Shown: positions 2,309 to 58,700, counted from the stretch's first letter. The stretch is DNA of 64,000 nucleotides from Polaromonas sp. (GCA_043740415.1 JAYUCJ010000152.1:2758-66757), one strand, 5' to 3'. Notes: generated by a model not told the origin, from the letters alone. Made by a program: numbers and translations.

Positions 2309-2356
2309 TTTATCCGGCGTATTTATTGCCTAAGGCGCTATTTTATTGATAGCAAT
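2309..2356 (+). repeat. Dispersed ~45-bp repeat, family R45 (CCGGCGTATTTATTGCC-N5-GCTAT-AT loop-ATAGC), intergenic copy
   Basis: tatccggcgtatttattgcctaaggcgctattttattgatagc. Matches the other R45 copies listed below. Confidence 0.8.
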
Positions 2357-2407
2357 TATCGACCGCAAGCGTAACCAGGTCGATTTTGCTATCATGTAGA
2401 AAATGCC

Positions 2408-2731
2408 TTGAGGAGCAGGGTCATGCCTCTGTCAAAGTCACACAAACAAGCCGCGCTGAAAGCGGTTTTAGCCATCGTCATGCTCGCAGCATTGGCAGGT
2501 GTCGCCGGTTCGCAGATTGCGCCCCATGTGCCGCTACAAACCGTGTTGCTCTATTGTGTTATTGGGGCAGCGATCTTGTTTGCTGTCCTCGTTTTTGCAG
2601 CCATTGTGATGCTGGTGTTCAACCAGTTCATCCTGCGCCACGGCGGCACTGACCCGACGTGGTTTTGGTTCAAAGCCGACCCGCCGGGGTTGGCGGAACA
2701 AAGAGCGCGGTTAAAGGCGCATGGCGAGTGA
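2408..2731 (+). CDS. Hypothetical small membrane protein
   Basis: 107-aa ORF with two hydrophobic spans (AVLAIVMLAALAGVAG; LLYCVIGAAILFAVLVFAAIVMLVF). No family recognised. Flanked by two direct R45 copies. Confidence 0.4.
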   Translation: MRSRVMPLSKSHKQAALKAVLAIVMLAALAGVAGSQIAPHVPLQTVLLYCVIGAAILFAVLVFAAIVMLVFNQFILRHGGTDPTWFWFKADPPGLAEQRARLKAHGE

Positions 2732-2760
2732 AATCCTGCCATTTTAATATATAAATATGG

Positions 2761-2807
2761 CTCTAGCCGGCGTTTTTATTGCTTAAGCTGCTATTTTATT
2801 TGTAGCG
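2761..2807 (+). repeat. R45 repeat, intergenic copy
   Basis: ctctagccggcgtttttattgcttaagctgctattttatttgtagcg. Confidence 0.75.
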
Positions 2808-2988
2808 TTTTTTAGCTGCGCGTAGCTGGTTTGTTTCCCCCACTCACCCCCAACCCCTCTCGCCCCGCCGGGCGAAATGGGAGCTTTCATTTGATGGTTG
2901 GCTGTAAAGTTTTGACCGAACGGCTTGCAGGTTTTGTATGAATTGAGATTGCCAGATAAAGTAGCTTAATGACTTAAACTCGACATTC

Positions 2989-3342
2989 ATGAAACAAACA
3001 TCATTGCTGGATCGCCTAATCTACGGTGGATTGATGCTCTTTTTCGGTGCAGCAATCGGGTGCATAGTAGGTATTGCTGGTTTTGGCCTATCTAAACCAC
3101 CTCACTTTAATGTCGCCGCACTACTGTTTACATTAATAGTGTTCTTTGTCGTCGGATTTGTATTTCTTGACCGTGGCTCAGACTTTGTTGCAGTGCGCTT
3201 TGTCTCGTTACTACTAATATTTAGCATTGCTTCAGAAACTGTACTGCACGAGCCAAAGCGTGAGGATTTTTCACCAAAGTGGTGTCTATTTGCACTTATC
3301 ACTTGGTTAGCTACGATTGTGTATATCTTGCTTAACTTCTAG
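2989..3342 (+). CDS. Hypothetical multi-pass membrane protein
   Basis: 117-aa ORF with 3-4 hydrophobic segments in an AT-rich stretch. The 3' end overlaps the pyrF stop by 11 nt (convergent). No family recognised. Confidence 0.4.
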
Positions 3343-4192
3343 CAGCCTGCAACACATCCCGAGTCTGAATCGCCACTTGCCGCGCTGCAGCCGCAAAATC
3401 AGCCCCACTCGACGCATACAACACCGCCCGTGATGAGTTGACGATGATGGGGGCGGTGGTTTGGCCGTTTTGCTGTTTCCAGCCGGCTTTGACTGTGGCT
3501 ACCGCATCACCGCCCTGAGCGCCTACGCCGGGGATGAGTAAGGGGACGTGGGGGGCTACTTTTCGGACGCGTTCTATTTCAGCCGGATACGTTGCGCCTA
3601 CGACGAGGCCGAGCTGGCCGTTGGTGTTCCACTCGCCTTGGGCGAGTTTGGCGATGTGTTCGTACAACAGCGGCTCGCCGGGGACGGAGCTGAGGCGCTG
3701 GGCCTGGAGGTCGTCGCCGCCGGGGTTGGAGGTGCGGCAGAGCAGGAAGGCGCCTTTGCCGTGGTAGGCCAGGTAGGGTTGCACGGAGTCAAAACCCATG
3801 AAGGGGGACAGGGTGACGGCGTCAGCACCGTAGCGCTCGAAGGCTTCGATGGCGTATTGCGCGGCTGTTGAGCCGATATCGCCGCGTTTGGCGTCCAAAA
3901 TCACGGGAACGTGGGGTGCGGTGGCGCGCATGTGCTGCATGAGCTTTTCCAGCTGGTTTTCGGCGCGGTGGGCGGCGAAGTAGGCGATTTGGGGTTTGAA
4001 GGAGATCACCAGGTCGGCGGTGGCGTCCACAATCGCGGCGCAAAAGTCGTAGATTTTGCTGGCATCGCCCTGCAAGTGGGCGGGGAACTTGGCCGGCTCG
4101 GGGTCTAGGCCGACGCAGAGCATGGATTGATTGCTGCGCTCGGCTTCTTTGAGTTGTTCTAAAAAGGTCATGGGGGGATTGTAAATTAGCAC
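3332..4192 (-). CDS. pyrF: Orotidine 5'-phosphate decarboxylase (type 2)
   Basis: [11 protein letters not shown]...[10 protein letters not shown]...[11 protein letters not shown]...PGVGAQGG are typical PyrF motifs. The true start is possibly the internal ATG at 4171. Confidence 0.9.
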
Positions 4193-4207
4193 CCAACTTA
4201 CAAAAAT

Positions 4208-4267
4208 CCGTTCGGACTGAGCCTGTCGAAGTCATCAAGAACCCTTCGACAGGCTCAGGGCGAACGG
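4208..4267. repeat. GC-rich palindromic element (family PAL: CCGTTCGnnCTGAGCCTGTCGAAG...CTTCGACAGGCTCAGnGCGAACGG)
   Basis: Near-perfect inverted repeat ccgttcggactgagcctgtcgaag / cccttcgacaggctcagggcgaacgg, between pyrF and the EamA gene. Confidence 0.85.
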
Positions 4268-4287
4268 AAAACGCTTACTATCCATCC

Positions 4288-5199
4288 ATGCAAAAACTCT
4301 CCGCAAAACAACTCTGGCTCTTGGTCGTTCTTACCGTGGTGTGGGGCTTGAACTGGCCGGTGATGAAGCTGGGGGTCACGGGCATGCCACCGCTGCAGTT
4401 CAGAACCCTGTCAATGTGGCTGGGGCTGCCGGTGCTGGCGCTGGCGTTGGTGTGGCTGAAAGTGCCGTTTGCCATGCCGCGCAAGCATTGGCGGGAGCTG
4501 CTGTTGCTGGCGGCGACCAATATGTTCATCTGGCATGTGTGCATTATTTTGGCGATTCAGTCGCTCTCCAGCGGGCGGGCGGCGATTTTGGGCTATACCA
4601 TGCCTATTTTTTCAGCCATTCTGGGGGCGATCTTTTTTGCCAGCGTCATGACCAAGCGCAACTGGCTGGGCGTGGCTGCTGCTGCCTTGGGCGTGGCGCT
4701 GCTGCTGTGGCATGAAATGACAGGCTTGAGCGGCAAACCCCTGGGCGTGGCTCTGGCTTTGACGGCGGCAGCCACTTGGGCGCTGGGCACGCAGCTGCTG
4801 CGCCGCACCAAGATTGACACCCCCACCTTGGCGATTTCGTTTTGGATGACGGTTTTGGCCTGCATGGTGATGACGGCGCTGACCGTGACATTTGAGCGTG
4901 ACGCCTGGGTTATGCCCTCACAAATTTCTGGCAACTCGTGGTTTGCGATTGTTTACAACGCGGTGCTGGTGTTTGGCTTCGCCCATGCGGCGTGGTTTTT
5001 CCTGGCACGCACCCTGCCGCCCGTGGCGTCTACGCTGTCGGTGATGATGATTCCGATTTTGGGTGTTTTTGCTGGCGCTTACTGGCTGGGCGAAGTCTTG
5101 CATTGGCAAGACTGGGCGGCGGTGGCGCTGATGGTGGTGGCGATTGCGTCGGTTTTGGCACCGACGAAGACACCACCGATTCGTCCAATTGAAAAATAA
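4288..5199 (+). CDS. EamA/DMT-family transporter
   Basis: 303 aa with about 10 TM segments in a duplicated EamA-like layout. Confidence 0.75.
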   Translation: MQKLSAKQLWLLVVLTVVWGLNWPVMKLGVTGMPPLQFRTLSMWLGLPVLALALVWLKVPFAMPRKHWRELLLLAATNMFIWHVCIILAIQSLSSGRAAILGYTMPIFSAILGAIFFASVMTKRNWLGVAAAALGVALLLWHEMTGLSGKPLGVALALTAAATWALGTQLLRRTKIDTPTLAISFWMTVLACMVMTALTVTFERDAWVMPSQISGNSWFAIVYNAVLVFGFAHAAWFFLARTLPPVASTLSVMMIPILGVFAGAYWLGEVLHWQDWAAVALMVVAIASVLAPTKTPPIRPIEK

Positions 5200-5200
5200 A

Positions 5201-5250
5201 CCGTTCGCCCTGAGCTTGTCGAAGGGTTTCGACAAGCTCAACCCGAACGG
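5201..5250. repeat. PAL palindromic element
   Basis: ccgttcgccctgagcttgtcgaagggtttcgacaagctcaacccgaacgg, immediately after the EamA stop codon. Confidence 0.85.
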
Positions 5251-5253
5251 AAA

Positions 5254-6126
5254 TTATTTGGACACTAAAGACGCCTTAGCCAAACACAAATCCGCCCACG
5301 CTTTGGCTTTGTCCGCTGGGTTGCGCAGCAAATTGGCGGGTGAATAGGTCACGACAACGGGAATGCCTTGGTAGCTGTGAACGGTGCCGCGCAGCTGACC
5401 CAGCGGTGGCACGGGGTTGCTGACAGTTTGCGCCAGCAACGCCTGCGCGGCGTAGCGTCCCATCGCCAAAATCATTTTCGGACGCGTCAATGCCACTTGG
5501 CGGCGTAAAAAAGTCTCGCACTGCGCCAGCTCTTGCGCGCCCGTGCTTTGCCCTTCAGTGCGGCATTTGACGGCGGGGGTTAATGTGACTTTTTGGGTAA
5601 CTTGTTCTGTGCTTAAACCCATGGCTTTGAGCATATTGCCCAGTAAGACACCCTCATCGCCCGTGAACGGTGCACCGGCGGCTTCGTCAGACTCGGTCGG
5701 TGGGTCGCCGACGATGAACCAATCAGCTTGCTGCGCAGATGCTGGCGTGCCAAAAACAATGCCATTTCGACCTGCGCACAGCTGGCAGGCTTGGCAGGTT
5801 TGCGCGGTTTGCTGCAGGGTTGGCCAATCCATCTCTTGCAGGCCTGCGGGCATGGCTTGCAAAACCAGCTCGGGACGATCGATTTTCGGTGAATTTGGTT
5901 TAACAACCGCATTTTGAGGCTGTTTTAGGGGTTTAGCCGGCGTATTTATTGCCTGAAGTGCTATTTTATTTATAGCAATTTGTGGTTTTTCAACAACTTG
6001 CGCGGTCTGAGAGCTAGCGGCAACAACGGCAACTTCATCCAGAACGTAAACCGTTTCAGGCTGCCAAACGGTGATGCCCATTTCTTGCAGCATGGCGCGT
6101 TGGCGGGTGTCTAAAGCTAGGCTCAT
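5254..6126 (-). CDS. Uracil-DNA glycosylase, family 4
   Basis: C-terminal domain has CQLC..., FIVGDPPTESDEAAGAPFTGDEGVLLGNML and VVTYSPANLLR. The N-terminal extension contains an in-frame R45 copy. Confidence 0.8.
   Translation of the reverse strand: MSLALDTRQRAMLQEMGITVWQPETVYVLDEVAVVAASSQTAQVVEKPQIAINKIALQAINTPAKPLKQPQNAVVKPNSPKIDRPELVLQAMPAGLQEMDWPTLQQTAQTCQACQLCAGRNGIVFGTPASAQQADWFIVGDPPTESDEAAGAPFTGDEGVLLGNMLKAMGLSTEQVTQKVTLTPAVKCRTEGQSTGAQELAQCETFLRRQVALTRPKMILAMGRYAAQALLAQTVSNPVPPLGQLRGTVHSYQGIPVVVTYSPANLLRNPADKAKAWADLCLAKASLVSK
5932..5980 (+). repeat. R45 repeat, inside the udg CDS (in frame)
   Basis: tttagccggcgtatttattgcctgaagtgctattttatttatagcaatt. Read on the minus strand as ...IAINKIALQAINTPAKP... 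Confidence 0.8.
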
Positions 6127-9866: not shown

Positions 9867-11951
9867 ATGACTAAGCCGCACAAGCGTGATTTAGCCGAAC
9901 TGCTAGAAGCCGTTGATCTAGAAGCGCCACTGGCGCAGCGGCATTTGTGGTTGATAGCATTGTTCACGTGGATTCGTGGTGATGCCAAATCGGTCAGTGC
10001 TGCCATCAACCGCTTGCACTTGCTGCTGGATGTGGCGCAATCGCGCCCACAGCTGCAAACGCGTTTACGCCAGTGGTGGCACCAGCTGCTGCAAATTGTT
10101 GATGCTTCCAGTTTGCTAGCGGATTATGGTTTTGCACAACGCAGCGCCTTTGTGAGTGAACTGACCGAGCGTATACGCTTGAAACTGCTGCCTGCCACGC
10201 CTGAGACGACAGACGCTGCGGTGCTCTTCTCCCTCGTTTTATCCCATAGTTTTGACCAGCTGTGGCTGGCCGAACTGGATGAAGCGACGTTGGCTCGCAT
10301 TGCGGACTTGTTAGAGACACCCGACATTGGCGACAGTGCCAGCACCCAAACCAGCTATTGGCAAAACACGGTGCTGGAAGCCATCACTTTTTGTGTGGGC
10401 CACATTCGATCCAGCGGTTTTTCTCCCGAGCTGCGCACGCGCATGAGCCCCGCTGCCGTACAAGACAGGCCTTTTCATTGGCTGGATGCAGAATTGGATG
10501 CCTTGCGCGCTGCTTTTTTAGCGACCCGTACGGGTGCAGCGGAAGATGCAATGGCCAATGCCGAGGCGCTGCAACACGCTGTCACCGAATTTCGTAACTG
10601 CTTAGACGCCTGCCGCCAAGCTGCAGGCACCGTGTACACGCATTTGGACGAACACGGCATTTCCGTCAGCCTGGTTTTCCGCCTGCGCGAGATGCGGGCG
10701 CGGGTGCTGCGCGTGCGTGAGTTGTTGGATTGTTTGCTGTCAGACCGACCCAACAGCTACACCGCCAAGCTGCTGTCGCACTTGGTCAAAATTGGCGTGC
10801 ACAGGCGCAGTGTGCGCGATTTGATCACTTCGAACACCACGCTGTTGGCCGCCAAAATGGCGGACCGCAGTGCCGAGACGGGTGAAAACTACATCACCCG
10901 CAACCGCGCCGAATACTGGGACATGCTGCGCAAAGCGGCAGGCGGTGGCGGCATGGTGGCCATCACCATTTTGGTGAAATACCTGCTGCTGGCTATGGGC
11001 TTTTCCGCCTTTTGGGGCGGCTTTTTTGGCGGTGTGAATTACGCGCTGAGCTTCATCGCCATCCAATTGTTGCACTGGACGCTAGCCACCAAGCAGCCCG
11101 CCATGACCGCGCCCGCCATGGCCGCCAAGCTGAAAGACTTGAGTGGCGACAACGAGGTGGCGTCTTTCGTCGACGAAGTCACCCACGTGGTGCGCTCCCA
11201 AGTCGCCGCTGTGTTGGGCAACTTGGCTTTGGTCGTTCCTTGTGTACTGCTCATCAGCTATTTGATGCAGCTGGGCTTGGGCAAACCATTGATTGACCAA
11301 GCCGAAGCGAAGCATGCTTTGGCATCACTCACGCTGCTGGGACCCACGGCTTTGTTTGCCGCAGCAACGGGTGTGGTGCTGTTTTTATCCAGCATTTTTG
11401 CGGGCTGGGCGGAAAACTGGTTTGTGCTGCACCGTTTGGACTCGGCCATGCGTTTTAACCCGCGCATCACGGCGGCCATTGGCGAGACGCGGGCGGAGCG
11501 CTGGGCGCAGTTCATGCGTAAAAACATATCGGGTTTTGCCGCCAGTGTGTCCTTGGGCATGATGCTGGGTTTGATACCTGCGATTTCCGGGTTTTTGGGC
11601 TTCGGGCTGGAGCTACGCCATGTGACCCTGTCCACCGGGCAGATCGCAGCAGCCGGTGCATCGTATGGCTGGGATGTGCTGCATGTGCCCGAATTGCGTG
11701 AAGCTTTGTTGTGGGCGATTGCGGGTATTTTCGTGATTGGGCCGCTCAATGTGGGTGTCAGTTACTATTGTGCTTTTAGATTGGCATTGCGGGCGCACAA
11801 TGTCAGCGTGGGCGAGCGCAAACGTATTCGCAGCGCCGTGTGGGAACGCTTGAATTATTTTCCACTGAGTTTTTTATGGCCGCCAAAAGAAGCTAAAAAG
11901 CCAGAAGCTATACCACCAGAAGACAAGCAGCCGGAAGAAACGAATACTTAA
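9867..11951 (+). CDS. Membrane protein of the family nominally called site-specific recombinase (SpecificRecomb/Gcr-like)
   Basis: 694 aa. N-terminus resembles family members (DLAELLEAVDLEAPLAQRHLWLIALFTWIRGD). Several TM segments in the C-terminal half. No Tyr/Ser recombinase motifs seen. Confidence 0.5.
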   Translation: MTKPHKRDLAELLEAVDLEAPLAQRHLWLIALFTWIRGDAKSVSAAINRLHLLLDVAQSRPQLQTRLRQWWHQLLQIVDASSLLADYGFAQRSAFVSELTERIRLKLLPATPETTDAAVLFSLVLSHSFDQLWLAELDEATLARIADLLETPDIGDSASTQTSYWQNTVLEAITFCVGHIRSSGFSPELRTRMSPAAVQDRPFHWLDAELDALRAAFLATRTGAAEDAMANAEALQHAVTEFRNCLDACRQAAGTVYTHLDEHGISVSLVFRLREMRARVLRVRELLDCLLSDRPNSYTAKLLSHLVKIGVHRRSVRDLITSNTTLLAAKMADRSAETGENYITRNRAEYWDMLRKAAGGGGMVAITILVKYLLLAMGFSAFWGGFFGGVNYALSFIAIQLLHWTLATKQPAMTAPAMAAKLKDLSGDNEVASFVDEVTHVVRSQVAAVLGNLALVVPCVLLISYLMQLGLGKPLIDQAEAKHALASLTLLGPTALFAAATGVVLFLSSIFAGWAENWFVLHRLDSAMRFNPRITAAIGETRAERWAQFMRKNISGFAASVSLGMMLGLIPAISGFLGFGLELRHVTLSTGQIAAAGASYGWDVLHVPELREALLWAIAGIFVIGPLNVGVSYYCAFRLALRAHNVSVGERKRIRSAVWERLNYFPLSFLWPPKEAKKPEAIPPEDKQPEETNT

Positions 11952-19770: not shown

Positions 19771-20797
19771 TATCCGGTTGATCCAACTCGCGCAGAATGG
19801 CGAAGAGCTGCTGTGCGGCTAGGCCTGCATCTTCGGGCATGCGGCGAAAAATTAGGGTGGTGGAGGCGCTGTGCATTTGCTGGCGCGAGTAGACGGCGAT
19901 GTTTTTAGCGTCGGCATCCAAAATATCCAGCGCGGTTTGCAGGGCTTTGGCGTCCATCAGGCGGAGCTTGGCTTTGGGGGCGTAGTGGGATTCCAGCATG
20001 CCCGACGCTCTGGGAGCGTCTCCCAACGTAGCGCGTGGCGCTTCTGCCAATACATCTCGGGGGGCGTCTTCCAACAGCTCGCTTGGGGTAACTTCAACGG
20101 GTATTAAATCAGCATCTAGTCGGCGTATTGATTGCCTAGACTGCTCATTATTTAATAGCAAATTTTGGCCACAAGCGTATTCAATTTGAATGGCCGTCAG
20201 CACCCCTGGACGCAACAATACGGGCACGCCACGGCTGCAGTCAACTATTGTGGACTCGATACCAACGCTGCAAGCTCCGCCGTTCAGAATCAATAGTTCA
20301 TCCCCGAACTCGCCTTGGACGTGCTGCGCAGTGGTTGGGCTGACGCGGCCAAACTGATTCGCGCTGGGGGCGGCTAGGCCGTGGATGCCGCGTGTGGCGC
20401 AGTATTTGAGCAGCGCCAGTGCGACGGGATGCGACGGACAGCGCAGACCGACGGAGTTTTGCCCACCGGCGGCGGCGGCGGCCACTTCAGGGCGGCGCGG
20501 CAAAATCAATGTGAGCGGGCCGGGCCAGAAGGCGTCCATCAGCTTTTGGGCGAAAGCGGGAATGTCAGCCGCAAAACGGCTGGCACTGGCGGCATCAGCC
20601 ACGTGGACGATGAGTGGGTGCTCACTGGGGCGGCCTTTGGCGGTGAAAATTTTGGCGACGGCGGCTTCGTTGGCGGCGTCTGCCGCTAGGCCGTAGACGG
20701 TTTCAGTGGGCAAACCGACCAAGCCGCCTGCGGCGATGACGTCTGCCGCTTGGTCTATGGATGCGGAATTTGAACCATCAATAATCATTGAGAACAC
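19688..20797 (-). CDS. tsaC: L-threonylcarbamoyladenylate synthase (Sua5/YrdC long form)
   Basis: GGLVGLPTETVYGLAADA...SAPSANQFGRVSPT, plus a Sua5 C-terminal domain. The interdomain linker carries an R45 copy. Confidence 0.85.
   Translation of the reverse strand: MFSMIIDGSNSASIDQAADVIAAGGLVGLPTETVYGLAADAANEAAVAKIFTAKGRPSEHPLIVHVADAASASRFAADIPAFAQKLMDAFWPGPLTLILPRRPEVAAAAAGGQNSVGLRCPSHPVALALLKYCATRGIHGLAAPSANQFGRVSPTTAQHVQGEFGDELLILNGGACSVGIESTIVDCSRGVPVLLRPGVLTAIQIEYACGQNLLLNNEQSRQSIRRLDADLIPVEVTPSELLEDAPRDVLAEAPRATLGDAPRASGMLESHYAPKAKLRLMDAKALQTALDILDADAKNIAVYSRQQMHSASTTLIFRRMPEDAGLAAQQLFAILRELDQPDIKLIWVETPPEDVVWDGVRDRLTRAAA
20115..20160 (+). repeat. R45 repeat (diverged), inside the tsaC CDS (in frame)
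   Basis: tctagtcggcgtattgattgcctagactgctcattatttaatagca. Read on the minus strand as ...LLLNNEQSRQSIRRLDA... Confidence 0.65.
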
Positions 20798-50631: not shown

Positions 50632-51003
50632 ATGAAAAAATCTCTCAAACTCGCTTTAGTTGCCACTAGCATTGCCGTTTTGAGCGCCTGCGGCGGCGGC
50701 GGTGGCGATGTTGTGGTGATAGACCAACCTCATGCTTTTTTGTCAGTTGACAACCTCAACTATGGCAATGGTGTTGTTTGCGTTGAAGACATCTTCGTTG
50801 ATGCATTTTCCGCACAAGGCCAACAAGTGGCACGTGACTTGGTAGATTTCTACGGCACCTACAACTTCTCGTTGAGCCCCATCCATCAAGCCTACTCAGC
50901 GCCTACGTATTGCGGTGGCCCGACATCAAACTTCACACCCGCACCCGGCACGATCGTTAATGCAAGCTACTACTACAACGTGATTGTTCCGCGCGTTCGT
51001 TAA
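50632..51003 (+). CDS. Hypothetical lipoprotein
   Basis: 123 aa. Lipobox AVLSAC followed by a GGGGG linker. Confidence 0.55.
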   Translation: MKKSLKLALVATSIAVLSACGGGGGDVVVIDQPHAFLSVDNLNYGNGVVCVEDIFVDAFSAQGQQVARDLVDFYGTYNFSLSPIHQAYSAPTYCGGPTSNFTPAPGTIVNASYYYNVIVPRVR

Positions 51004-51020
51004 TCATTCATCCACAACAT

Positions 51021-51066
51021 GCTATTTTAATGATAGCACTTTAGGAAATAAATACGCCGATTACAG
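51021..51066 (-). repeat. R45 repeat, intergenic copy
   Basis: gctattttaatgatagcactttaggaaataaatacgccgattacag. Confidence 0.75.
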
Positions 51067-51099
51067 ACTGGTTTACTCGATAAATCAGGTTTTTTTATC

Positions 51100-51711
51100 T
51101 TATAACTTCAAATCAGAGGCCAGAGATGTTAGCGCCTCGGGTTCGATTTGCGTGTGTGCTGGGTAGTTGGTATGGTCGCAGCCTAGCTTCACACCTGCAC
51201 CCGCTAGAACGGCTGCGCGCATCGCTGCATTCAATTCAAAACGCACAAAATGAACAGCTGAAGTTTTCTCGTCGTTCTCACGCTCCAGGTCTTCGTCGGC
51301 AATAGCGTAGACGCGGGTGTGACCTTCGACTTCCACGAACATATGGTCTGCCACCCCGATCAGGCGCGCTAATTCACGCCGGCGCTCATTTTCGTCGGGG
51401 TACTCTATCAGCATGGTGGCTTTCCAGTTGCAGCCATCGGGTACCAAAGGCGCGTAAGCCTCGATTTTTTGCAAAATACCCTCTTCTTCAAATACCTTCT
51501 CAATACGCAACATTTCTTGAATTTGGTAACGTACCGTTGTTTCAGACTCAAATTGCAAGTTAATATGCTCGCCCAAATGCACAGAGCGCAACTGCCTGTG
51601 CGCCATGATGGCGACGTGGTTGGCCTTGCGGTACTTGCTGTAGGCCTCCAAAGTCATGAGGTTTTCAGGGGTGATGTGACCGGTTAATTGCATGGTATTT
51701 CTCAGATTCAA
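51100..51711 (-). CDS. DUF3501-family protein
   Basis: IRYQIQEMLRIEKVFEEEGI...NWKATMLIEY...ADEDLERE..EKTSAVHFVRFEL. Conserved partner of the Fe-S/CCG protein and rubrerythrin. Confidence 0.75.
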   Translation of the reverse strand: MNLRNTMQLTGHITPENLMTLEAYSKYRKANHVAIMAHRQLRSVHLGEHINLQFESETTVRYQIQEMLRIEKVFEEEGILQKIEAYAPLVPDGCNWKATMLIEYPDENERRRELARLIGVADHMFVEVEGHTRVYAIADEDLERENDEKTSAVHFVRFELNAAMRAAVLAGAGVKLGCDHTNYPAHTQIEPEALTSLASDLKL

Positions 51712-51744
51712 TTCAATTCAATTATTAATTCAATAATTTTTCAC

Positions 51745-53103
51745 TTATTTCAAACCATACGCTTCACGAATCAACGTGAGCGGATGTTTTTGCGGCACGA
51801 CGTGCCCTTCTGCCAATTTGTTCACCTCAAAACCCTGCGCGATATGGTGCCCACCCAGTGGACAGTCCGAGCTGATCACATCCGGCAAGCCGCCATCTTT
51901 GTGGTTGGCCATGGCTTTGAACAATGGTTTGCCAATCTTCATAGCTTGGTCGTGGGTGCCTACTTTGACGCCAAATGTGCCGGCATGACCCGAACAGCGC
52001 TCATGCGTGTGGACGCTGGTGCCTGGCACCATTTTGAGCATTTCTTCGGTCTTTTTGCCGATTTGCTGGACACGCCCGTGGCAGGGAATTTGGTAGCTGA
52101 TTTTGCCCAGTTCAACAGGAAAATCGACCTTCAACAATCCATCGCGTTTGCGGGCCATCAAGTACTCAAACGGGTCCCACATGGCTTCTTTGACCAAGGC
52201 AACATCAGTATCACCGGGAAACATCAACGGGATTTCTTGCTTGAACATCAAGGTGCAGCTGGGCACTGCGCTCAAAATCGCAAAGCCGTCTTTGGCGTAT
52301 TTGGCCAGTGTGGGAATGTTCGCGTCTTTGCTTTTACCTACAGAATCCAAATCACCCAGCTCCAACTTGGGCATGCCGCAGCAAGATTCTTTTTCAACGA
52401 TCACATAAGGTACTGCGTTGTGGTCTAAGATTTTCAGCAAATCATGACCTATGCCTGGTTCGTTGTAGTTGATGTAACAAGTCGCGTAAATAGCGACTTT
52501 GCCGGGCGTTTTTGCACCATCCACGACCGAATGCTCTTTGGACGTTGCAGCACCTGAGCGGAATTTTTTAGCTGCAAACTCAGGCAACCAGGCGTCTTTA
52601 TCAACGCCCAATACCTTTTCCATCACCGCGCGCGCTGGCTTGGTTTTATTGACGGCGTTGACAAGCTGCGAAACGATAGGAATACCGGCAAACGAACCCG
52701 TCACATCGGTGGACGACAGAATCTTCTCACCCATGCCGACTTCACCCTTTTTGAACTTGATCGCCTTGGCGCGCAGCATGGTGTGCGGAAAGTCTAGGTT
52801 GAACTCGTGCGGCGGTACATAAGGGCACTTGGTCAGGTAGCACAGGTCGCACATATAGCACTGGTCAACCACTTTCCAGTAGTCTTTTTTATCCACACCA
52901 TCAACTTCCATGGTCTTGGACTCGTCCACCAAGTCAAACAGCGTCGGGAATGAACCGCACAAGCTCACGCAGCGCCGGCAGCCGTGGCAAATATCAAAGA
53001 TGCGCTCCATCTCGTGGAAGGTCGCTTCTTCGTTGTAGTAATCGGGGTTTTGCCAGTCAATCGCGTGACGGGTCGGGGCGGCTAGGTTGCCTTCTGTTGC
53101 CAT
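51745..53103 (-). CDS. (Fe-S)-binding protein with 4Fe-4S ferredoxin and CCG domains (HdrD/GlpC-like)
   Basis: CHGCRRCVSLCGSFP, CYMCDLCYLTKCPY, and two cysteine-rich CCG-type regions (CCGMP; CSGHAG). Confidence 0.8.
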   Translation of the reverse strand: MATEGNLAAPTRHAIDWQNPDYYNEEATFHEMERIFDICHGCRRCVSLCGSFPTLFDLVDESKTMEVDGVDKKDYWKVVDQCYMCDLCYLTKCPYVPPHEFNLDFPHTMLRAKAIKFKKGEVGMGEKILSSTDVTGSFAGIPIVSQLVNAVNKTKPARAVMEKVLGVDKDAWLPEFAAKKFRSGAATSKEHSVVDGAKTPGKVAIYATCYINYNEPGIGHDLLKILDHNAVPYVIVEKESCCGMPKLELGDLDSVGKSKDANIPTLAKYAKDGFAILSAVPSCTLMFKQEIPLMFPGDTDVALVKEAMWDPFEYLMARKRDGLLKVDFPVELGKISYQIPCHGRVQQIGKKTEEMLKMVPGTSVHTHERCSGHAGTFGVKVGTHDQAMKIGKPLFKAMANHKDGGLPDVISSDCPLGGHHIAQGFEVNKLAEGHVVPQKHPLTLIREAYGLK

Positions 53104-53124
53104 ATATGCCTCTTTAAATATTTT

Positions 53125-53250
53125 CGCTCGCTACAACCAGAGGCGTAGCGAGCAGGTGCAGGGCTAGACGCGGGTGTCGGGTTACCGGAATGTGCTTAAG
53201 GCACATGAGGATTGCCCGAACGGAACCCGCAACGACGCCCTGCGCCTGCG
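53125..53250 (-). other. Structured intercistronic element (nested stems)
   Basis: 9-bp stem gctcgctac/gtagcgagc. 13-bp stem gcaggtgcagggc/gccctgcgcctgc (one G-U) enclosing cgggtt/aacccg and tgtgc-ttaag-gcaca hairpins. Lies between the rubrerythrin remnant and the Fe-S gene. Confidence 0.4.
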
Positions 53251-53264
53251 CAGTAGCCGAACGA

Positions 53265-53534
53265 TTAATCTACCAATTCAGCCAAAGCCTTGGCATAGCG
53301 GTTCGCGTGTGAACGCTCTGCTTTTGCCAAAGTTTCAAACCAATCAGCCACTTCATCATGACCTTCGTCGCGCGCTGTTTTAGCCATGCCAGGGTACATA
53401 TCGGTGTATTCATGGGTTTCGCCAGCGACGGCGGACTTCAAATTGTCACGAGTCGCGCCAAACGGCATGTCTGTGGCAGGGTCGCCGCATTGTTCTAGCC
53501 ACTCTAAGTGGCTGAAAAATCTCTTAAATTGCAA
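53265..53534 (-). pseudogene. Rubrerythrin-family gene, 5'-truncated
   Basis: Retains only HLEWLEQCGDPAT...AGETHEYTDMYPGMAKTARDEGHDEVADWFETLAKAERSHANRY, the second half of the four-helix bundle. The first E...ExxH half is missing. The ORF opens with non-homologous QFKRFFS from a TTG. Confidence 0.7.
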
Positions 53535-53711
53535 CCAATTGAAACGAGTTTACTGTAATACTTAAGATTTCAATTTCATGCATTTACTTATGTCAATGTT
53601 AACTTTCGGGGGGGGTAGCGCAACAAGTACTTACATTTAATTCAGTTTATCTTCAAAAACTGTCTATATTTAACTCTCAATTCAAAAGTGTTCTGAAATT
53701 TTCTGAATTTC

Positions 53712-55193
53712 TTGAGGATGTCAACGCAGATGTTATTTTTTCGCCCCGAAGTCATGCAGTCACAAGCCAGCCAATGGCTAGGCGTTGTACGCTTGCACAG
53801 ACCCTTGTCGTTCGGCTTGATCACTGCAACAGCCATCGGCGTTGCACTTTTGTGCATCACATTTGCAACGTGGGGCGAAGTCAACCGTAAATCACGCATT
53901 TCTGGCTTGCTCGTTTCTTCGTTAGGCAGCCTGAATATAGCCGCACCGCTGGCCGGTGTGTTGGTCGAAAGCCGGATTTCTGAAGGCCAAACCGTACAAG
54001 CGGGTGACGTGCTGTTCGTACTCAACACCGAGCGCCAAAGCACGGCGGGCGACACCAACGCCCTGACTCTGATACACATCGAAGCCCGCAAGCAAACCCT
54101 GAACACCGAGCGCGGCCTGCGCCAGCTGCAAACCAGTCAACGCAGCCAAGTGCTAGAAGACCGCATTCGCACGCTGAATGCCGAGCTATTGCGCCTAGAC
54201 GAAGAGCAAAACCTGCTAGAAAACCGCATCACCCTGTCCAAGAAGACACTTGCACGCAGCCAAAAATTAGCTTCCGAGGGCTTTTTGTCTGAAGCTCAAG
54301 TACAAACCAACCAAGAAGAACTCATAGACCTCAACAGCCGCCAACAAGCCCAAGCCCGCAGCAAACTCAGCACCCAGCGCGACCTACGCACACTCACTGG
54401 CGAAGCCGAAGGTCTAGCCACCCAACTCAAAGCAGATTTAAACCAGCTAGCGCGCAATGTGTCGCAGCTCAACCAAGAAGCCACAGAAACCACCGCCCGC
54501 AAAAGCACCCTCATCACCGCGCCCTACGCTGGCACCATCACCGCCTTTAACCTGCAAAACGGCCAAGCCGTGCAGGCGGGGCAAACCTTGGCGACGTTGG
54601 TGCGTACAGAAACCACATCTCCGATGCTCACCACAGAAAAAGTCAGGTTGAAAATCTCCGGCTACAAGATGACGACGTTACTTTCGACGCCAAAAAATAC
54701 CGTTCGCCCTGAGCCTAACATTCCATCCGTTCGCCCTGAGCCTGTCGAAGGGTTCACCGCCAAAGCAGAGCCACAAGCCCCGCAATCCCTCCAAGCCCAC
54801 CTCTACGCCCCCAGCCGCACCGCCGGCTTCCTCAAACCCGGCCAGTCCGTCTACATGCGCTACGCCGCCTACCCCTACCAAAAGTTCGGCCTACAAACCG
54901 GCCACATCACCGCCATATCCGCCACCCCCTTCTCCGCCAGCGAGCTACCCCCCAACATCGCCCAGCAGCTCATCGCGCAATCTGGCAGCAACGAAGCCCT
55001 CTTTCGCATCAACGTGCGGCTAGACCAGCAAACGATTACCAGCTACGGCGAGCCGCTGCAACTCAAAGCAGGGCTAACGCTAGAGGCCGATGTGCTGCAA
55101 GAACGCAGAAAGATATGGGAATGGGTGCTAGAGCCGCTGCTTGCGGCTAAGGCGCAATTGAAGGTTTTGAACTCGAATCCAAATAAAAATTAA
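53712..55193 (+). CDS. HlyD/CvaA-family membrane-fusion (adaptor) protein for peptide export
   Basis: FRPEVMQSQASQWLGVVRL + TM + lipoyl-like hairpin (ISEGQTVQAGDVLFVL) + long coiled coil + beta-barrel (APYAGTITAFNL..GQAVQAGQTLATLV). Carries an in-frame PAL element. Confidence 0.85.
   Translation: MRMSTQMLFFRPEVMQSQASQWLGVVRLHRPLSFGLITATAIGVALLCITFATWGEVNRKSRISGLLVSSLGSLNIAAPLAGVLVESRISEGQTVQAGDVLFVLNTERQSTAGDTNALTLIHIEARKQTLNTERGLRQLQTSQRSQVLEDRIRTLNAELLRLDEEQNLLENRITLSKKTLARSQKLASEGFLSEAQVQTNQEELIDLNSRQQAQARSKLSTQRDLRTLTGEAEGLATQLKADLNQLARNVSQLNQEATETTARKSTLITAPYAGTITAFNLQNGQAVQAGQTLATLVRTETTSPMLTTEKVRLKISGYKMTTLLSTPKNTVRPEPNIPSVRPEPVEGFTAKAEPQAPQSLQAHLYAPSRTAGFLKPGQSVYMRYAAYPYQKFGLQTGHITAISATPFSASELPPNIAQQLIAQSGSNEALFRINVRLDQQTITSYGEPLQLKAGLTLEADVLQERRKIWEWVLEPLLAAKAQLKVLNSNPNKN
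54700..54755 (+). repeat. PAL-family element (tandem left arms) in frame within hlyD
   Basis: ccgttcgccctgagcctaacattccatccgttcgccctgagcctgtcgaagggttc. Read as ...TVRPEPNIPSVRPEPVEGF... Confidence 0.8.
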
Positions 55194-55200
55194 TAAAAGC

Positions 55201-55698
55201 ATGAAGTATTTTCAAAAAATCCGCACCATCGTATTTTCAACTGAATTGCCTTTATGGAAATATTGCTTTCTGACATTTTGGATCTTTATCAGCGTATCGG
55301 TTATAGCCAATATTTTTATAAAAACATTAGCAGTATTTTTAACTATAAATTATGGACCTGAAGAAATTAAAACTAATTTATCGGTGATTGAATCAGTTGT
55401 TGTTAGCATAATCGTACCGTTTATAGAAACACTCCTTCTTGCGGTGTTTTTAATATTATTTAAAATAATATTAAAAAATAATATGTTTATAGCAATCATC
55501 ATTGCAATAGTTGCCGGATTGACACATTCAAAACAAGATTGGACACATTTTTTTATATACGCGGCTATGTTTTATTTATTTGCACTATTTTATTTAACAA
55601 GGTCAAAAATTTCTTTTGCCAATGGATTTATAGCTGCTTTTGTTCCACATCTGTTAAACAATTCAATGATTGCTCTATTTGCATATTATGATATTTAA
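55201..55698 (+). CDS. CPBP/Abi-like intramembrane protein (putative immunity), paralogue 1
   Basis: 165 aa, about 5 TM. PFIETLLLA (degenerate EExxxR), GLTHS, and FVPHLLNN (HxxxN). Ends ...YYDI like paralogue 2. 7-nt gap after the hlyD stop. Confidence 0.65.
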   Translation: MKYFQKIRTIVFSTELPLWKYCFLTFWIFISVSVIANIFIKTLAVFLTINYGPEEIKTNLSVIESVVVSIIVPFIETLLLAVFLILFKIILKNNMFIAIIIAIVAGLTHSKQDWTHFFIYAAMFYLFALFYLTRSKISFANGFIAAFVPHLLNNSMIALFAYYDI

Positions 55699-55773
55699 AT
55701 CTAAATTATAAATTCTGTTTTTACGCATTTGGCAGTAAATTTTTTATAAATGCGGTATTTAGAAAGAGTAGTT

Positions 55774-56031
55774 ATGAAAGAATTATCGATTGAAGATTTA
55801 GCAGAAGTCGCCGGTGGAGGAGCATTGACCACAGCTGGGAAATGGATGCTAAACCAACTTGCTGGCTGGGGATTTACGGAAGCAGTTGTCGAAGGCGTTA
55901 AATATGTAATGGACAATGAGGGCGGCTGGTTTACTCCTGGCGCTGCCAACGACGGTGGCGGTTCGTCTCCGTACGTTTGCGATGCTAACGGCTACTGCTA
56001 TACCAATAATCAGTATAGCTGCTCTGCATAA
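55774..56031 (+). CDS. Double-glycine-leader peptide 1 (class II microcin/bacteriocin-like precursor)
   Basis: 85 aa. The 15-aa leader MKELSIEDLAEVAGG is spaced like the ColV leader MRTLTLNELDSVSGG. About 70-aa Gly/Trp-rich core ending PYVCDANGYCYTNNQYSCSA. RBS-like aaagag upstream. Confidence 0.75.
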   Translation: MKELSIEDLAEVAGGGALTTAGKWMLNQLAGWGFTEAVVEGVKYVMDNEGGWFTPGAANDGGGSSPYVCDANGYCYTNNQYSCSA

Positions 56032-56051
56032 TAAATTTGCTTAAATAAAAA

Positions 56052-56075
56052 TCCAAAGATGTGCACATCTTTGGA
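56052..56075 (+). terminator. Perfect 12-bp-arm hairpin after the peptide 1 gene (no T-tract)
   Basis: tccaaagatgtg/cacatctttgga, 20 nt after the stop codon. Confidence 0.35.
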
Positions 56076-56099
56076 TAATACAACTTTAATATTACCAAT

Positions 56100-56327
56100 A
56101 TGCATAGAATGATTAGTGGAGTACTGTCGTTTATTAGAAGCAGTCAAACATCACCGTACAATACTTCTAATGCTATACAAACGGCAGTCTTACAGGCATA
56201 CGCAGCGCGCGTGAAACTAAGCAATGATACACATGGCGATACCGCACTACACATCAATCAACATATTCACAAACCAGCTCTCTCTGAAAACAGTGACTGC
56301 AAGCGCTTATGGCAGCAATATAGTTGA
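56100..56327 (+). CDS. Hypothetical 75-aa ORF
   Basis: Open frame in an AT-rich region. No motif, no TM, no obvious RBS. Confidence 0.25.
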   Translation: MHRMISGVLSFIRSSQTSPYNTSNAIQTAVLQAYAARVKLSNDTHGDTALHINQHIHKPALSENSDCKRLWQQYS

Positions 56328-56382
56328 AAAACCTTGTGAGATAATATTGAATGAGCTTTTTAAGCATGCAAATATGTCCATG

Positions 56383-56426
56383 GCTAACATATTATTTGCC
56401 TGAGCAGCTATTTTAATAATAGCAAT
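56383..56426 (+). repeat. Degenerate R45 copy
   Basis: gctaacatattatttgcctgagcagctattttaataatagcaat. Confidence 0.55.
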
Positions 56427-56465
56427 ATACTAAAACAAGTACACATTAAATATTCTAAAATTACT

Positions 56466-57386
56466 ATGCGAATTTTAAATTTTTTATACATTACTTCTGC
56501 ATTAACGGTATTGGTTGGTTGTGTATCACCCATACAAACACCAGAAGAGGTTAGTAGAAATAATGACTTATTAGCTACTCAGATATTGCAATCAAAAAGC
56601 AAGAGCAGTCAAACTATACAAAATAAATCTCTCGATAATACTCCAACCATACAAAGGGTATCAGGTATTTACTTTGGATTAGCACTCGATGGTGTATCGC
56701 CAGCTTTTGAGGGTGATATTAAGCGAGTACAAAATTTATTTTTTGACGAAATTGCTAAGGGTCCTAGCTTGCTACTCAGCAATTCCGAAACAAATGAACA
56801 AATATACCCACGTGCGGATTTCAGAACCATCCCAGAGGCAGCAAAGGCTGTAGGGAATTACCGTGTTGAGCCCGATATCGGGTTAACAACACCGGGCCTA
56901 AAAGTGGTAGTTGTTTCATCACACGGCAGAGAAAAGCACTTGCGACTACGTGTAGGAAAAAATCGGATCCAAGGCGAAGTAAGTGATGCTTACCTCTTGA
57001 AACTACTTGCTGATATTGATGGCTCAAGCAAAACTCCTACGCTGTTGATTATTTCAGCCTGCCACTCGGGCTCTTTTATTCCACTTCTTGCTGCGCCCAA
57101 TAGAATTATCATGACGGCAGCAGCCAGTGATAAATTATCATTTGGCTGTGGCACAGATTCTAAAAATACGGCATTTACTGAACACTTACTAGATCAAAAC
57201 ATTGACACGAAATTATCATTGCACAATCTTTTTGATAGTGCTTTAAAACGTATTTCCGATTTTGAAATAAAAATGAAAATCGCAACCTCATCACCACAAA
57301 TATCTGTGGGTGCAAATATGCAGAGATTGTATGAAGCACGCATTGAAGAGTGGGATAAAATTTTAACCAAAGAAAGAAAAGATTAA
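56466..57386 (+). CDS. Lipoprotein, clan-CD cysteine peptidase (C13/legumain-like family)
   Basis: Lipobox LTVLVGC. His-Gly ... Ala-Cys dyad context VVVVSSHG...LLIISACHSGSFIPLL, followed by IMTAAASDKLSFGC as in bacterial C13-family proteins. Confidence 0.65.
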   Translation: MRILNFLYITSALTVLVGCVSPIQTPEEVSRNNDLLATQILQSKSKSSQTIQNKSLDNTPTIQRVSGIYFGLALDGVSPAFEGDIKRVQNLFFDEIAKGPSLLLSNSETNEQIYPRADFRTIPEAAKAVGNYRVEPDIGLTTPGLKVVVVSSHGREKHLRLRVGKNRIQGEVSDAYLLKLLADIDGSSKTPTLLIISACHSGSFIPLLAAPNRIIMTAAASDKLSFGCGTDSKNTAFTEHLLDQNIDTKLSLHNLFDSALKRISDFEIKMKIATSSPQISVGANMQRLYEARIEEWDKILTKERKD

Positions 57387-57396
57387 ATACAAATAG

Positions 57397-57645
57397 TTAA
57401 TTCCAAATTACTGTCCTATAAATGGCGGCAATACTCAATACCGAAATATACCAACCCCTGTCATTGCATCAATAGCGCAAGTATCCGCAAGAGCCCGAAA
57501 CGTGATGCCTAGTAATGATGCTAACGGTGATACCGCGCCATACTGCAACCAATACTCTCACAAAGCAGTTGCGTCTAAAAACGGTGACCGCAACGGTTTA
57601 GGTCAGCAATACAGTTGGGGAACTTGGTGGGATGATACGAATTGA
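57397..57645 (+). pseudogene. Start-less paralogue of GG-leader peptide 2
   Basis: The frame opens right after a TAG: LIPNYCPINGG-NTQYRNIPTPVIASIAQVSARARNVMPSNDANGDTAPYCNQYSHKAVASKNGDRNGLGQQYSWGTWWDDTN. The core is homologous to 58371-58631, but there is no ATG/GTG/TTG or RBS before the GG. Confidence 0.6.
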
Positions 57646-57668
57646 GTTTTTATGTGCATAAATGTGCC

Positions 57669-57714
57669 ACTAGCCGGCGTATTTATTGCCTAGACAGCTA
57701 TATTATTTATAGCA
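57669..57714 (+). repeat. R45 repeat, 24 nt after the peptide-2 paralogue
   Basis: actagccggcgtatttattgcctagacagctatattatttatagca. Confidence 0.85.
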
Positions 57715-57742
57715 AAAATTTCATCTAATATCAAATAAAAAC

Positions 57743-58237
57743 ATGCAGAGTATCGCAAAAATTTACGGTTTTTTAATTTCTAACAAAATTTCATTCCCAA
57801 AATATATCGGCATTGTATTTTTAATAGAATTATTGTCAGCCATATTTCTTGCTTTACTTGTTTTTGTTTTCATTGACATCTTTGATTTAAATTACGCCGC
57901 ATTTCCTGAGCACGATTTATCTTGGGGAACATTTTGGAAGGGAGTCGTTTTTGCACCTACTCTTGAAACCTATTTATTGATTTTAACTTTGCATATTTTG
58001 CGAAGTTTCGACATTCAAGGTTTAAAACTTGCAAGTATTGCTGCCATATTCTGGGGCGCATTACATGGGGTTCAAAGTTGGCCTTGGTTTTTTGCACCTG
58101 CATGGATATTTTTCATCTATTCAACGGCTTACGAAACATGGCGTTTGACATCTTTTAAGAAAGCTTATTTTGCCGCTGCTATTCCGCATGCTCTGAATAA
58201 TTTGGTAGCCCTGTTCGCTAATAGCTACGACATCTAA
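57743..58237 (+). CDS. CPBP/Abi-like intramembrane protein (putative immunity), paralogue 2
   Basis: 164 aa. PTLETYLLI, GALHGV, IPHALNN. Ends ...SYDI. The stop TAA overlaps an ATG (TAATG) that begins a relic of the ABC gene. Confidence 0.65.
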   Translation: MQSIAKIYGFLISNKISFPKYIGIVFLIELLSAIFLALLVFVFIDIFDLNYAAFPEHDLSWGTFWKGVVFAPTLETYLLILTLHILRSFDIQGLKLASIAAIFWGALHGVQSWPWFFAPAWIFFIYSTAYETWRLTSFKKAYFAAAIPHALNNLVALFANSYDI

Positions 58238-58313
58238 TGCGCGTCATCATTCAATCCGAAGCCAGCGAATGCGCGCTGGCTAGTTTGGCTATGGTTTGCA
58301 GTGCGCATGGGCT
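58237..58313 (+). pseudogene. 77-nt duplicate of the 5' end of the C39-ABC exporter gene
   Basis: atgcgcgtcatcattcaatccgaagccagcgaatgcgcgctggctagtttggctatggtttgcagtgcgcatgggct is identical to 59649-59725 except for one base. Homology stops abruptly afterwards. Confidence 0.85.
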
Positions 58314-58370
58314 ATCAGTCAATAAGAGAGTTTTTAAGAAAATAATCTTTATTAATCAAAGGAGGATTTT

Positions 58371-58631
58371 ATGGAGCAACTTAATAAATCAACATTGTCA
58401 TTAATATTGGGGGGCAATAACGTCCCGGGAAAAGTGCCGGCAGCTGTACTCGCATCAATGACGCAAGTATCCAGTAGAGTAAGTGATACATTACGGATTA
58501 TGAATACGCATGACGATGCCGCGCCATACTGCAATCAATATTTACACGTGGCTATTGCTCCAAAAAACGGTGACCGCAACGCCTTGGGGCAGCAATATAG
58601 CTGGGGCACTTGGTGGGATGATACACATTGA
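58371..58631 (+). CDS. Double-glycine-leader peptide 2 (class II microcin/bacteriocin-like precursor)
   Basis: 86 aa. Strong RBS aaaggagg 7 nt upstream. The 15-aa leader MEQLNKSTLSLILGG has hydrophobic residues at -4, -7 and -12. Core ends GQQYSWGTWWDDTH. Confidence 0.75.
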   Translation: MEQLNKSTLSLILGGNNVPGKVPAAVLASMTQVSSRVSDTLRIMNTHDDAAPYCNQYLHVAIAPKNGDRNALGQQYSWGTWWDDTH

Positions 58632-58654
58632 GTTTTTAGAGGCAAGAATATACC

Positions 58655-58700
58655 GTTAGCCGACGTATTTATTGCCTAATATGCTATGAACTTTAATTAT
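58655..58700 (+). repeat. R45 repeat (3' half diverged), 24 nt after peptide 2
   Basis: gttagccgacgtatttattgcctaatatgctatgaactttaattat. Confidence 0.65.

Follow-up and report, generated by a model that had tools for sequence, protein, structure and literature searches.

R45, best described as an old, lineage-specific interspersed element of Polaromonas-type Comamonadaceae that remains under nucleotide-level constraint

A 64,000-nucleotide stretch of Polaromonas sp. DNA (GCA_043740415.1, JAYUCJ010000152.1:2758-66757), here called the window, carries many copies of a short hairpin-bearing repeat, R45, between genes and inside conserved ones. A search with the 22-mer CTAGCCGGCGTATTTATTGCCT at up to 3 mismatches returned 11 matches in the window versus 0 expected from dinucleotide-preserving shuffles, and a twelfth copy, 51043-51058(-), was picked up with a 16-mer core. 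An nhmmer profile built from the window copies regained 12/12 solid copies at E <= 1e-12 and also detected degenerate copies at 56396-56426(+) (E = 2e-5) and 43110-43137(-) (E = 0.016). The copies are listed below by window position and strand, with the related loci (L numbers) that hold a copy at the same place and with the neighboring open reading frames (ORFs).

2288..2359, +, R45 (58.1 bits), intergenic, beginning within the last codons or stop of ORF 295-2304
2741..2812, +, R45, intergenic, right behind ORF 2408-2731; orthologous copy in L014
5911..5982, +, R45, in frame in the UDG-family gene 5254-6126(-), antisense reading ..AINKIALQAINTPAK..; common to L194 and L197
12699..12770, -, R45, in frame in thiL (AIRS/AIRS_C) 11973-12983(+), peptide AIYSIATQAINTPSN; common to L194-L197
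15616..15687, -, R45, between ORFs 14671-15306(+) and 15677-16072(-), overlapping the first 11 bases of the latter; within a ~5-kb segment without counterpart in the syntenic loci
20094..20165, +, R45, in frame in the interdomain linker of Sua5/TsaC 19688-20797(-); common to L110 and L194-L197
23245..23316, -, R45, in frame in the thioredoxin-TPR gene 22675-23613(+), peptide TIHLIAPQATNTPAT; common to L194-L197
35202..35273, -, R45, in frame and in sense in fmt 35066-36082(-); common to L190-L193 and L197
43101..43137, -, degenerate partial R45, hairpin half only, in the Smr-domain gene 42645-43310(-); similar partial matches in the Smr genes of L190 and L191
44516..44587, +, R45, in frame in glmU 43337-44782(-), peptide ..AINLIATKAINTPARVIF..
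51015..51086, -, R45, between convergent ORFs 50632-51003(+) and DUF3501 51100-51711(-); orthologous copies in L190-L193
56372..56439, +, degenerate R45 (20 bits, E = 2e-5), in a bacteriocin-type island
57648..57719, +, R45, right behind the 3' end of a bacteriocin-like small-gene remnant
58634..58705, +, R45, hairpin half decayed, right behind the double-glycine (GG)-leader peptide gene 58371-58631; its upstream flank and that of 57648..57719 are mutually paralogous

An earlier note, made from the sequence of the window, had placed 14 copies of a ~45-bp repeat here, and all 14 positions match ours (12 solid copies by motif and profile, 2 degenerate ones by nhmmer). Its consensus and its 5-bp-stem hairpin, GCTAT-N7-ATAGC, were correct, as were its statements that copies lie in both orientations (7 on + and 5 on - among the solid copies), that they occur in intergenic spacers, in an AT-rich island (at 56-59 kb), and in conserved genes, and that they are more AT-rich than their surroundings (33% G+C versus 52% for the window). 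The length has to be revised, since the unit spans ~66-72 nt when its left arm, which is weakly conserved and reaches ~28 nt upstream from the core, is included. The anatomy was drawn from 209 non-identical copies (window and related loci) anchored on the core, with the first G of GGCG as the origin of numbering. Positions -7 to +38 have high information content, and a lower but real signal reaches back to about -28 and on to about +43. The order of parts is a left arm of about tTTAGGnnnTAAATAyGsC, TnTAGCC, the core GGCGTATTTATTGCCT, a 5-nt variable spacer, GCTAT-N7-ATAGC, and a tail, AAnTT. The left arm repeats the core in inverted and degenerate form, with TnTAGCC between the two as the loop of the unit, and an idealized consensus given a left arm that pairs with the core throughout folds as a long hairpin with a short one behind it. 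One subfamily is sharply bounded, with a unit of ~66 nt, or 22 codons. No covarying pairs were detected by mutual information across the copies.

Six of the window copies lie in genes whose Pfam domains flank the repeat (UDG-family, thiL, sua5/tsaC, thioredoxin-TPR, fmt, and glmU). The reading frames remain open, and in-gene copies are translated as 15-24 extra residues. The window GlmU has ~17 extra residues precisely at R45 in comparison with GlmU structures in the PDB. The top 120 GlmU homologues (down to 80% amino acid identity) were all of insert length (475-495 aa, one of them truncated); the insert was present at the R45 position in 11/11 aligned homologues (80-92% amino acid identity), and a recognizable ..AINxIAxxAINTPA.. 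peptide was kept in 9 of these 11. The GlmU and Fmt copies fall at gaps in Pfam and PDB alignments, and the Sua5 copy falls in an interdomain linker. The AlphaFold model of GlmU was unusable for placing the insert, its mean predicted local distance difference test score (pLDDT) being 45.8. Among all available copies, 41/214 (~20%) lie in long ORFs, spread over all six frames; the dominant readings are antisense AINxIAxQAINTPA (16 copies) and sense xxAGVxIAxxAIxNIA (13 copies). Stop codons of the consensus have been lost by substitutions at weakly constrained positions such as +16. A protein-level motif was rejected as an explanation of the family, since ~80% of the copies are intergenic and the genic ones occupy all six frames. 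At L192 19000-19798, fmt is split in the gene calls into two pieces (189 and 86 aa), with the break upstream of the R45 copy, which therefore points to a possible frameshift or assembly error and not to disruption by R45.

The age of the sites was assessed in syntenic loci around glmU (L190-L193) and around sua5 (L194-L197). All comparable window sites are filled at the same position in every relative: those in GlmU, Fmt, the DUF3501 spacer, Sua5 (in L110 too), thioredoxin-TPR, ThiL, and UDG. At the fourfold degenerate positions in glmU, secD, and the gene for the Orn/Lys/Arg decarboxylase, the window and these relatives agree in only 38-60% of cases, which is close to saturation. No lineage-specific insertion into otherwise conserved sequence was seen in the L190-L197 comparisons, and the few non-shared copies (L194 2998-3052, L196 11840-11897, and L191 3189-3232) all lie in variable segments. 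Judged from these alignments, the family appears to be old and constrained and not recently jumping. The suggestion that it is active or recently active was thus not sustained: every comparable site is shared by relatives at that degree of divergence, and neither target-site duplications nor terminal inverted repeats nor a clean filled-versus-empty pair accompanies the copies. When the flanks of the 209 copies were scanned by column pairs, z did not exceed 3.2 in ~3,200 tests and no diagonal signal emerged, indicating no target-site duplication, and none was visible around the sharply bounded subfamily. Dating by orthologous loci, as the earlier note had proposed, succeeded in revealing shared old sites but not in yielding a pair with and without the element, since the candidate loci were too remodeled. 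Some copies decay, for example, the partial one in the Smr gene, the one at 56396, and a remnant in PurK. Weak R45-like remnants were present inside purK in two genomes (window 21328-21349 and L196 9492-9550); these may be an older decayed copy, which would show that not all copies are maintained.

The core sequence itself has been kept in relatives whose silent sites are near saturation. Core identity was 0.73 between orthologous pairs, 0.72 between paralogous copies of the same genome, and 0.71 between copies differing in both site and genome (3 sites, 5 genomes). Because orthologous copies are about as alike as paralogous ones, phylogenetic signal has been erased while likeness to a common consensus persists. 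That the copies show no genome-specific similarity is also a mild argument against simple within-genome homogenization. In the 20 nt beyond R45, identity was 21-53% at the Fmt and DUF3501 sites and in the two most distant GlmU orthologues and 74-95% in the two closest GlmU orthologues. In the six host genes, 13/19 fourfold sites within the R45 core were invariant across all the genomes versus 158/686 elsewhere (odds ratio, 7.2; Fisher P = 4.6e-5), indicating that the DNA is constrained beyond the needs of the peptide. The core and the 5-bp stem are held near one consensus in coding and non-coding copies alike, fourfold positions included. The likeness among copies would then reflect constraint toward that consensus rather than recent copying.

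The short hairpin was examined in 105 copies ascertained on the core alone, which avoids the seed bias of a pattern that fixes the left hairpin half. Across the five stem pairs, we counted 446 Watson-Crick pairs, 46 G·T or T·G pairs, and 8 A·C or C·A pairs. Within a single stem pair, one type of mutation is frequent on the side where it produces a wobble and rare on the opposite side, where it produces A·C. Sense and antisense copies were alike in this respect, with A·C/C·A rare and wobble common (20% and 31%). The tolerance of G·T without A·C fits a hairpin read as single-stranded DNA on the strand of R45 itself, and this strand specificity does not fit an mRNA-level function.

Intergenic copies favor the 3' ends of genes and avoid promoter regions, as REP (repetitive extragenic palindromic) elements do. 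This preference follows from the orientation-normalized spacer counts, which were 47 convergent, 85 tandem (50 co-oriented with R45 and 35 opposite), and only 10 divergent. The median distance from R45 to the flanking ORFs was 25-50 nt where the spacer is convergent or tandem and reached ~120 nt where it is divergent. Neither a sigma-70 promoter nor an intrinsic terminator accounts for the element, since the scans left R45 copies unflagged, with counts equal to those of shuffles. No copy matched an Rfam 15 covariance model at the gathering or a permissive threshold, and a known RNA family was rejected as well. The core CGGCGTATTTATTGCC, for example, at window 44542-44559, shares with sigma-54 promoters (TGGCACG-N4-TTGCW) the GG-N10-GC spacing and the TTGC; with 7/12 consensus positions matched, this likeness of CGGCGTATTTATTGCC is probably coincidental.

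Outside the window, the pattern GGCGTATTTATTGCCT-N5-GCTAT matched more than 106 loci among the matches listed for a species-representative genome collection, so the repeat is not confined to this stretch. Nearly all of these loci belong to Polaromonas metagenome-assembled genomes (MAGs) from glacier-fed streams and similar sites, and a few belong to Comamonadaceae or Burkholderiaceae MAGs, Rhodoferax, and "Ca. Aalborgiella." The matching Polaromonas-type loci held 209-269 counted copies, and the density was ~1 per 5.5 kb in unbiased syntenic loci and the same in the window. The Comamonadaceae MAG locus L038 is syntenic with the window at 91% nucleotide identity. Elsewhere in the Burkholderiales, 930 kb of Sua5-containing loci (median G+C, 0.67) held 1 real copy, in the close relative L110; this Sua5-based metagenome scan returned mostly distant relatives and serves only as a control for the specificity of R45. 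No copy was matched in PLSDB (plasmids) or INPHARED (phages), and 3 IMG/VR contigs with R45 copies had host-like G+C and R45 density. When the copies of L001-L106 were grouped by MAG, Polaromonas MAGs had a common left arm, ..TTTAGGnnTAAATATGGC, whereas the Aalborgiella, CAWJBD, and CALMEI genomes had AAAATATATGAAAAATTGGCC instead, together with a different spacer. These two lineage subfamilies indicate that amplification or homogenization continued after the deeper lineages split; within the window's own lineage, the examined sites predate the divergence of the compared genomes. The consensus had not been recognized as a described family, and our full-text literature search likewise found no description of it, the JS666 genome paper that reports a Polaromonas MITE (a miniature transposable element with inverted repeats) lying outside the coverage of that search.

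The window contains no transposase, as had been noted before, and no related autonomous insertion sequence (IS) with matching ends was found in the window or in ~1 Mb of related loci. A Y1/HUH transposase of the REP-associated tyrosine transposase (RAYT) type (PF01797) is encoded in L087 and is single copy, conserved, and in a fixed syntenic slot in related genomes. At four RAYT loci, however, the gene has on both sides, in inverted orientation, not R45 but a 23-nt hairpin repeat, R23 (AATTAGGGTCAGATTCCAATT); the R45 copies near RAYT at these loci are in direct orientation at the ends of neighboring genes. R23 occurs elsewhere as inverted doublets, the classical REP/REPIN (paired inverted REP) arrangement, and is absent from the window. 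Its places are L087 1630-2513, L198-L200 around 3946-5835, L009 840-924, L074 811-895, and L101 9-93. We therefore rejected R45 as the cognate REP of this RAYT: a search for a transposase elsewhere in the genome, which had been proposed, did reveal one in R45-bearing genomes, but its partner is R23. The two repeats nevertheless keep company. An R45 copy is present within 150 nt of 10 of the 16 R23 sites (permutation mean, 1.1; maximum, 5), with R23 on the R45 hairpin side in all 10; after orthologous loci were collapsed, ~5 independent loci remained, all positive. Behind the copy at 2741-2812, at window 2810-2900, lies a ~100-nt module with a G+C-rich hairpin (..CCCCCACTC..TCTCGCCCCRCCGGGCGAAA..). 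The module recurs after R45 in L009 (about 930-1040) and L099 (about 180-290) and, more diverged, in L074, and an R23 doublet stands behind it in L009, L099, and L074 but not in the window. The difference may represent one orthologous spacer with presence or absence of a REPIN. R45, the G+C-rich module, and R23 make up mosaic clusters that recall the bacterial interspersed mosaic elements (BIMEs) of Escherichia coli; the link between R45 and R23 is suggestive but unproven.

The proposal that the family is REP-, MITE-, or RPE-like holds as far as a high-copy dispersed repeat with REP- and RPE-type behavior is concerned, and RPEs and REPs/BIMEs are its closest analogues, but R45 lacks defining features of MITEs, REPs, and the RPE families. 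To our knowledge, R45 has no apparent sequence similarity to the Rickettsia palindromic element (RPE) families (RPE-1 to RPE-10). Like RPEs, it is short, AT-rich, and interspersed, with many in-frame translated copies in unrelated housekeeping genes, its insertions are old and kept in orthologues, and no transposase has been identified. The hallmark of RPEs is in-frame insertion in genes (Ogata et al. 2000, summarized in PMC10969869), and R45 has this trait in six unrelated genes of the window, with the insertions kept in relatives. R45 differs from RPEs in its size (~70 nt versus about 100-150 nt), in having an asymmetric 22-nt conserved core plus a 5-bp hairpin in place of a full palindrome, in its free-living betaproteobacterial host, in its use of all six frames, and in the nucleotide-level constraint shown here. 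With REPs and BIMEs, it shares high copy number, a location at gene 3' ends and in convergent spacers, long vertical persistence, a hairpin on one strand, and, as in BIME modules, clustering with the genuine REP of the clade in fixed relative orientation. In contrast to REPs, 20% of R45 copies are intragenic (19-20% in long ORFs), inverted doublets are lacking and close pairs are direct (window 2310/2763; L033), R23 and not R45 flanks RAYT in inverted orientation, and the conserved TAG of R45 is not at the foot of a strong palindrome. Compared with the 5' GTAG of REPs, R45 conserves nTAG at -5..-3 and has G at position -6 in 35% of its copies; only a 3-4-bp GGC(G)/(T)GCC stem without wobble preference follows. 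The betaproteobacterial repeat element (BRE), of which Polaromonas sp. JS666 has 29 copies (Hot et al. 2011, PMC3110155), is likewise a dispersed repeat in Comamonadaceae with some copies within ORFs. However, BRE is ~90 nt long, 69% G+C, and often in tandem, and identity with R45 was rejected because the published BRE sequences are G+C-rich and unrelated (PMC3110155).

Several features neighbor the copies or the compared loci. The bacteriocin-type cluster forms an ~11-kb island (window 50500-61760) that is missing from the syntenic locus L038 and adjoins the RNase P RNA gene, 61767-62145(-). Judged by their translations, its genes encode an HlyD-like protein (53712-55193), CPBP/Abi-like membrane proteins (55201-55698 and 57743-58237), small GG-leader peptides (55750-56031 and 58371-58631), and a transporter (59649-61763) that looks like a C39-peptidase ABC exporter, the 5' end of which is duplicated in truncated form at 58237-58404. 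Pfam search assigned two further island genes, 58798-59649 as encoding a Bro-N protein and 56466-57386 as encoding a peptidase C13-like protein. Window 23700-28000 is a low-G+C segment (39-48%) without an R45 copy, and its content differs in the syntenic loci; it encodes a DUF2971 protein, a PIN-domain protein, and a pair made up of a Gp49/HigB-like protein and a helix-turn-helix (HigA-like) protein. Beside thiL, at 9867-11951, is a 694-aa ORF in an order conserved in L194, L195, and L197; its syntenic counterparts have PF10136 ("SpecificRecomb," annotated as a site-specific recombinase).

The description that suits R45 best is that of an old RPE/REP-like interspersed element, lineage-specific and still under nucleotide-level constraint. 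We propose, with a probability of roughly 0.55, that it is a short interspersed element specific to the Polaromonas-type Comamonadaceae that spread long ago, has been inherited vertically, and has had its sequence kept by way of a trans-acting factor. The element would have spread as a non-autonomous insertion element; an old insertional spread is proposed because there are real protein length insertions relative to other genera and clade-specific left-arm subfamilies. The spread may have occurred without target duplication, via a hairpin on one strand of the DNA, in the manner of IS200/IS605 and REP-type systems, and the copies would have been inherited vertically since. A trans-acting factor would recognize the DNA of R45, probably the top-strand hairpin and the adjacent core, and so maintain the sequence. 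Inside genes, only copies in stop-free frames and variants would survive, as with the Rickettsia elements.

A number of points weigh against this proposal. The orthology sample is small, with ~40 kb of the window compared with 4-5 genomes. No clean filled/empty pair was found, since L030 versus L011 and L194 versus L197 are too remodeled to give boundaries, and insertion is accordingly deduced only from protein length differences. A mobilizing enzyme for R45 was not found in these scans, and the RAYT of the clade is flanked by another repeat. The left-arm/core duplex is better than shuffles (z < -2) in only 23% of copies, and RNAalifold returned no consensus structure for the copies. Another possible source of the G·T asymmetry is a sequence-specific preference for the left half-site. 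Only 19 fourfold sites lie inside R45 cores, and the constraint could come either from site-by-site purifying selection or from a conversion-like drive that pulls copies toward a master sequence.

A more ambitious version of the proposal, which we offer tentatively, is that R45 is not decaying selfish DNA but a functional recognition element at the DNA level, with the 22-nt core and top-strand hairpin read by a dedicated factor, perhaps domesticated RAYT/REPIN machinery or a chromosome maintenance function, and kept at hundreds of fixed sites. Alternatively, R45 could be a genome-wide cis signal that benefits the host, an array of sites for a chromosome-organizing or a replication- or repair-associated protein, under purifying selection locus by locus and with its insertional origin incidental. 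The nucleotide-level constraint in coding and intergenic copies is what such a signal would show, and the near equality of same-genome and cross-genome identity (0.72 versus 0.71), the only modest orientation bias relative to genes, and the conservation of sequence and not merely of structure all agree with it. Selection at each of hundreds of 45-nt sites is demanding, however; a candidate R45-binding protein was not found, the promoter and terminator scans were negative, and the PurK remnant, the Smr partial copy, and the copy at 56396 show decay. We consider this explanation possible but doubtful.

It is unlikely that R45 is mobilized or maintained by the HUH tyrosine transposase of the clade as a second, atypical substrate beside the classical REP. 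The conserved single-copy PF01797 gene in R45-bearing genomes, the association with R23 at 10/16 sites, the R45 copies adjoining the RAYT gene in L199, L200, and L087, and the combination of a strand-specific hairpin, a conserved TAG 5' of the core, and no target duplication would suit such an arrangement. Against it, the inverted flanking repeat is R23, R45 has no inverted doublets and 20% of its copies are in genes, and the R23-R45 sites collapse to the ~5 independent loci mentioned above, with both repeats favoring gene 3' spacers. RAYT orthologues of 75% identity bear the source names Polaromonas sp. C04 and Rhodoferax, which may also speak against it.

A recently active MITE, as the earlier note proposed, is largely refuted for the examined sites and now seems very improbable. 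R45 resembles MITEs and similar families (Correia/NEMIS, ERIC, Nezha) in being small and dispersed, with occasional in-frame intragenic copies and lineage subfamilies, and its high copy number, AT richness, presence in the variable island, and few lineage-specific copies (those of L194, L196, and L191) could be taken in the same sense. In contrast to MITEs, it has no terminal inverted repeats or target-site duplication, and no related autonomous or parent IS was found in the window or in ~1 Mb of related loci. Its ends have no inverted similarity, and the sole palindromy is internal, between left arm and core, and significant in 23% of copies. Moreover, the comparable sites are all ancient, orthologous pairs are no closer than paralogous ones, and there was no R45 on plasmids or phages in annotated collections. 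A DNA uptake sequence maintained by transformation bias can be set aside with similar confidence: copies do occur in both orientations and are tolerated in genes in permissive frames, they are conserved at orthologous sites without conservation of the flanks, and dprA is present in the syntenic loci, but known uptake sequences have 9-12-nt cores, arise in situ by point mutation without length change, and number about 1 per kb, whereas R45 has a conserved unit of 45-70 nt, occurs ~1 per 5 kb, and makes true length insertions of 15-24 aa in proteins.

In-frame "selfish DNA inside proteins" is known mainly from obligate intracellular Rickettsia. With R45, the same behavior now appears in free-living, cold-environment Comamonadaceae and in the essential genes glmU, fmt, thiL, and tsaC/sua5, and there is direct evidence that conservation since the divergence of these lineages extends to the nucleotide sequence itself and is not limited to the peptide. 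R45 lengthens conserved proteins and will confuse the annotation, alignment, and repeat masking of Polaromonas MAGs. The question of whether such an element is a relic or a maintained signal becomes testable, with the coupling of R45 to REPIN/RAYT as a starting point. If the tentative recognition-element reading is true, R45 would be a cis signal compatible with protein coding, preserved even when translated inside essential enzymes.

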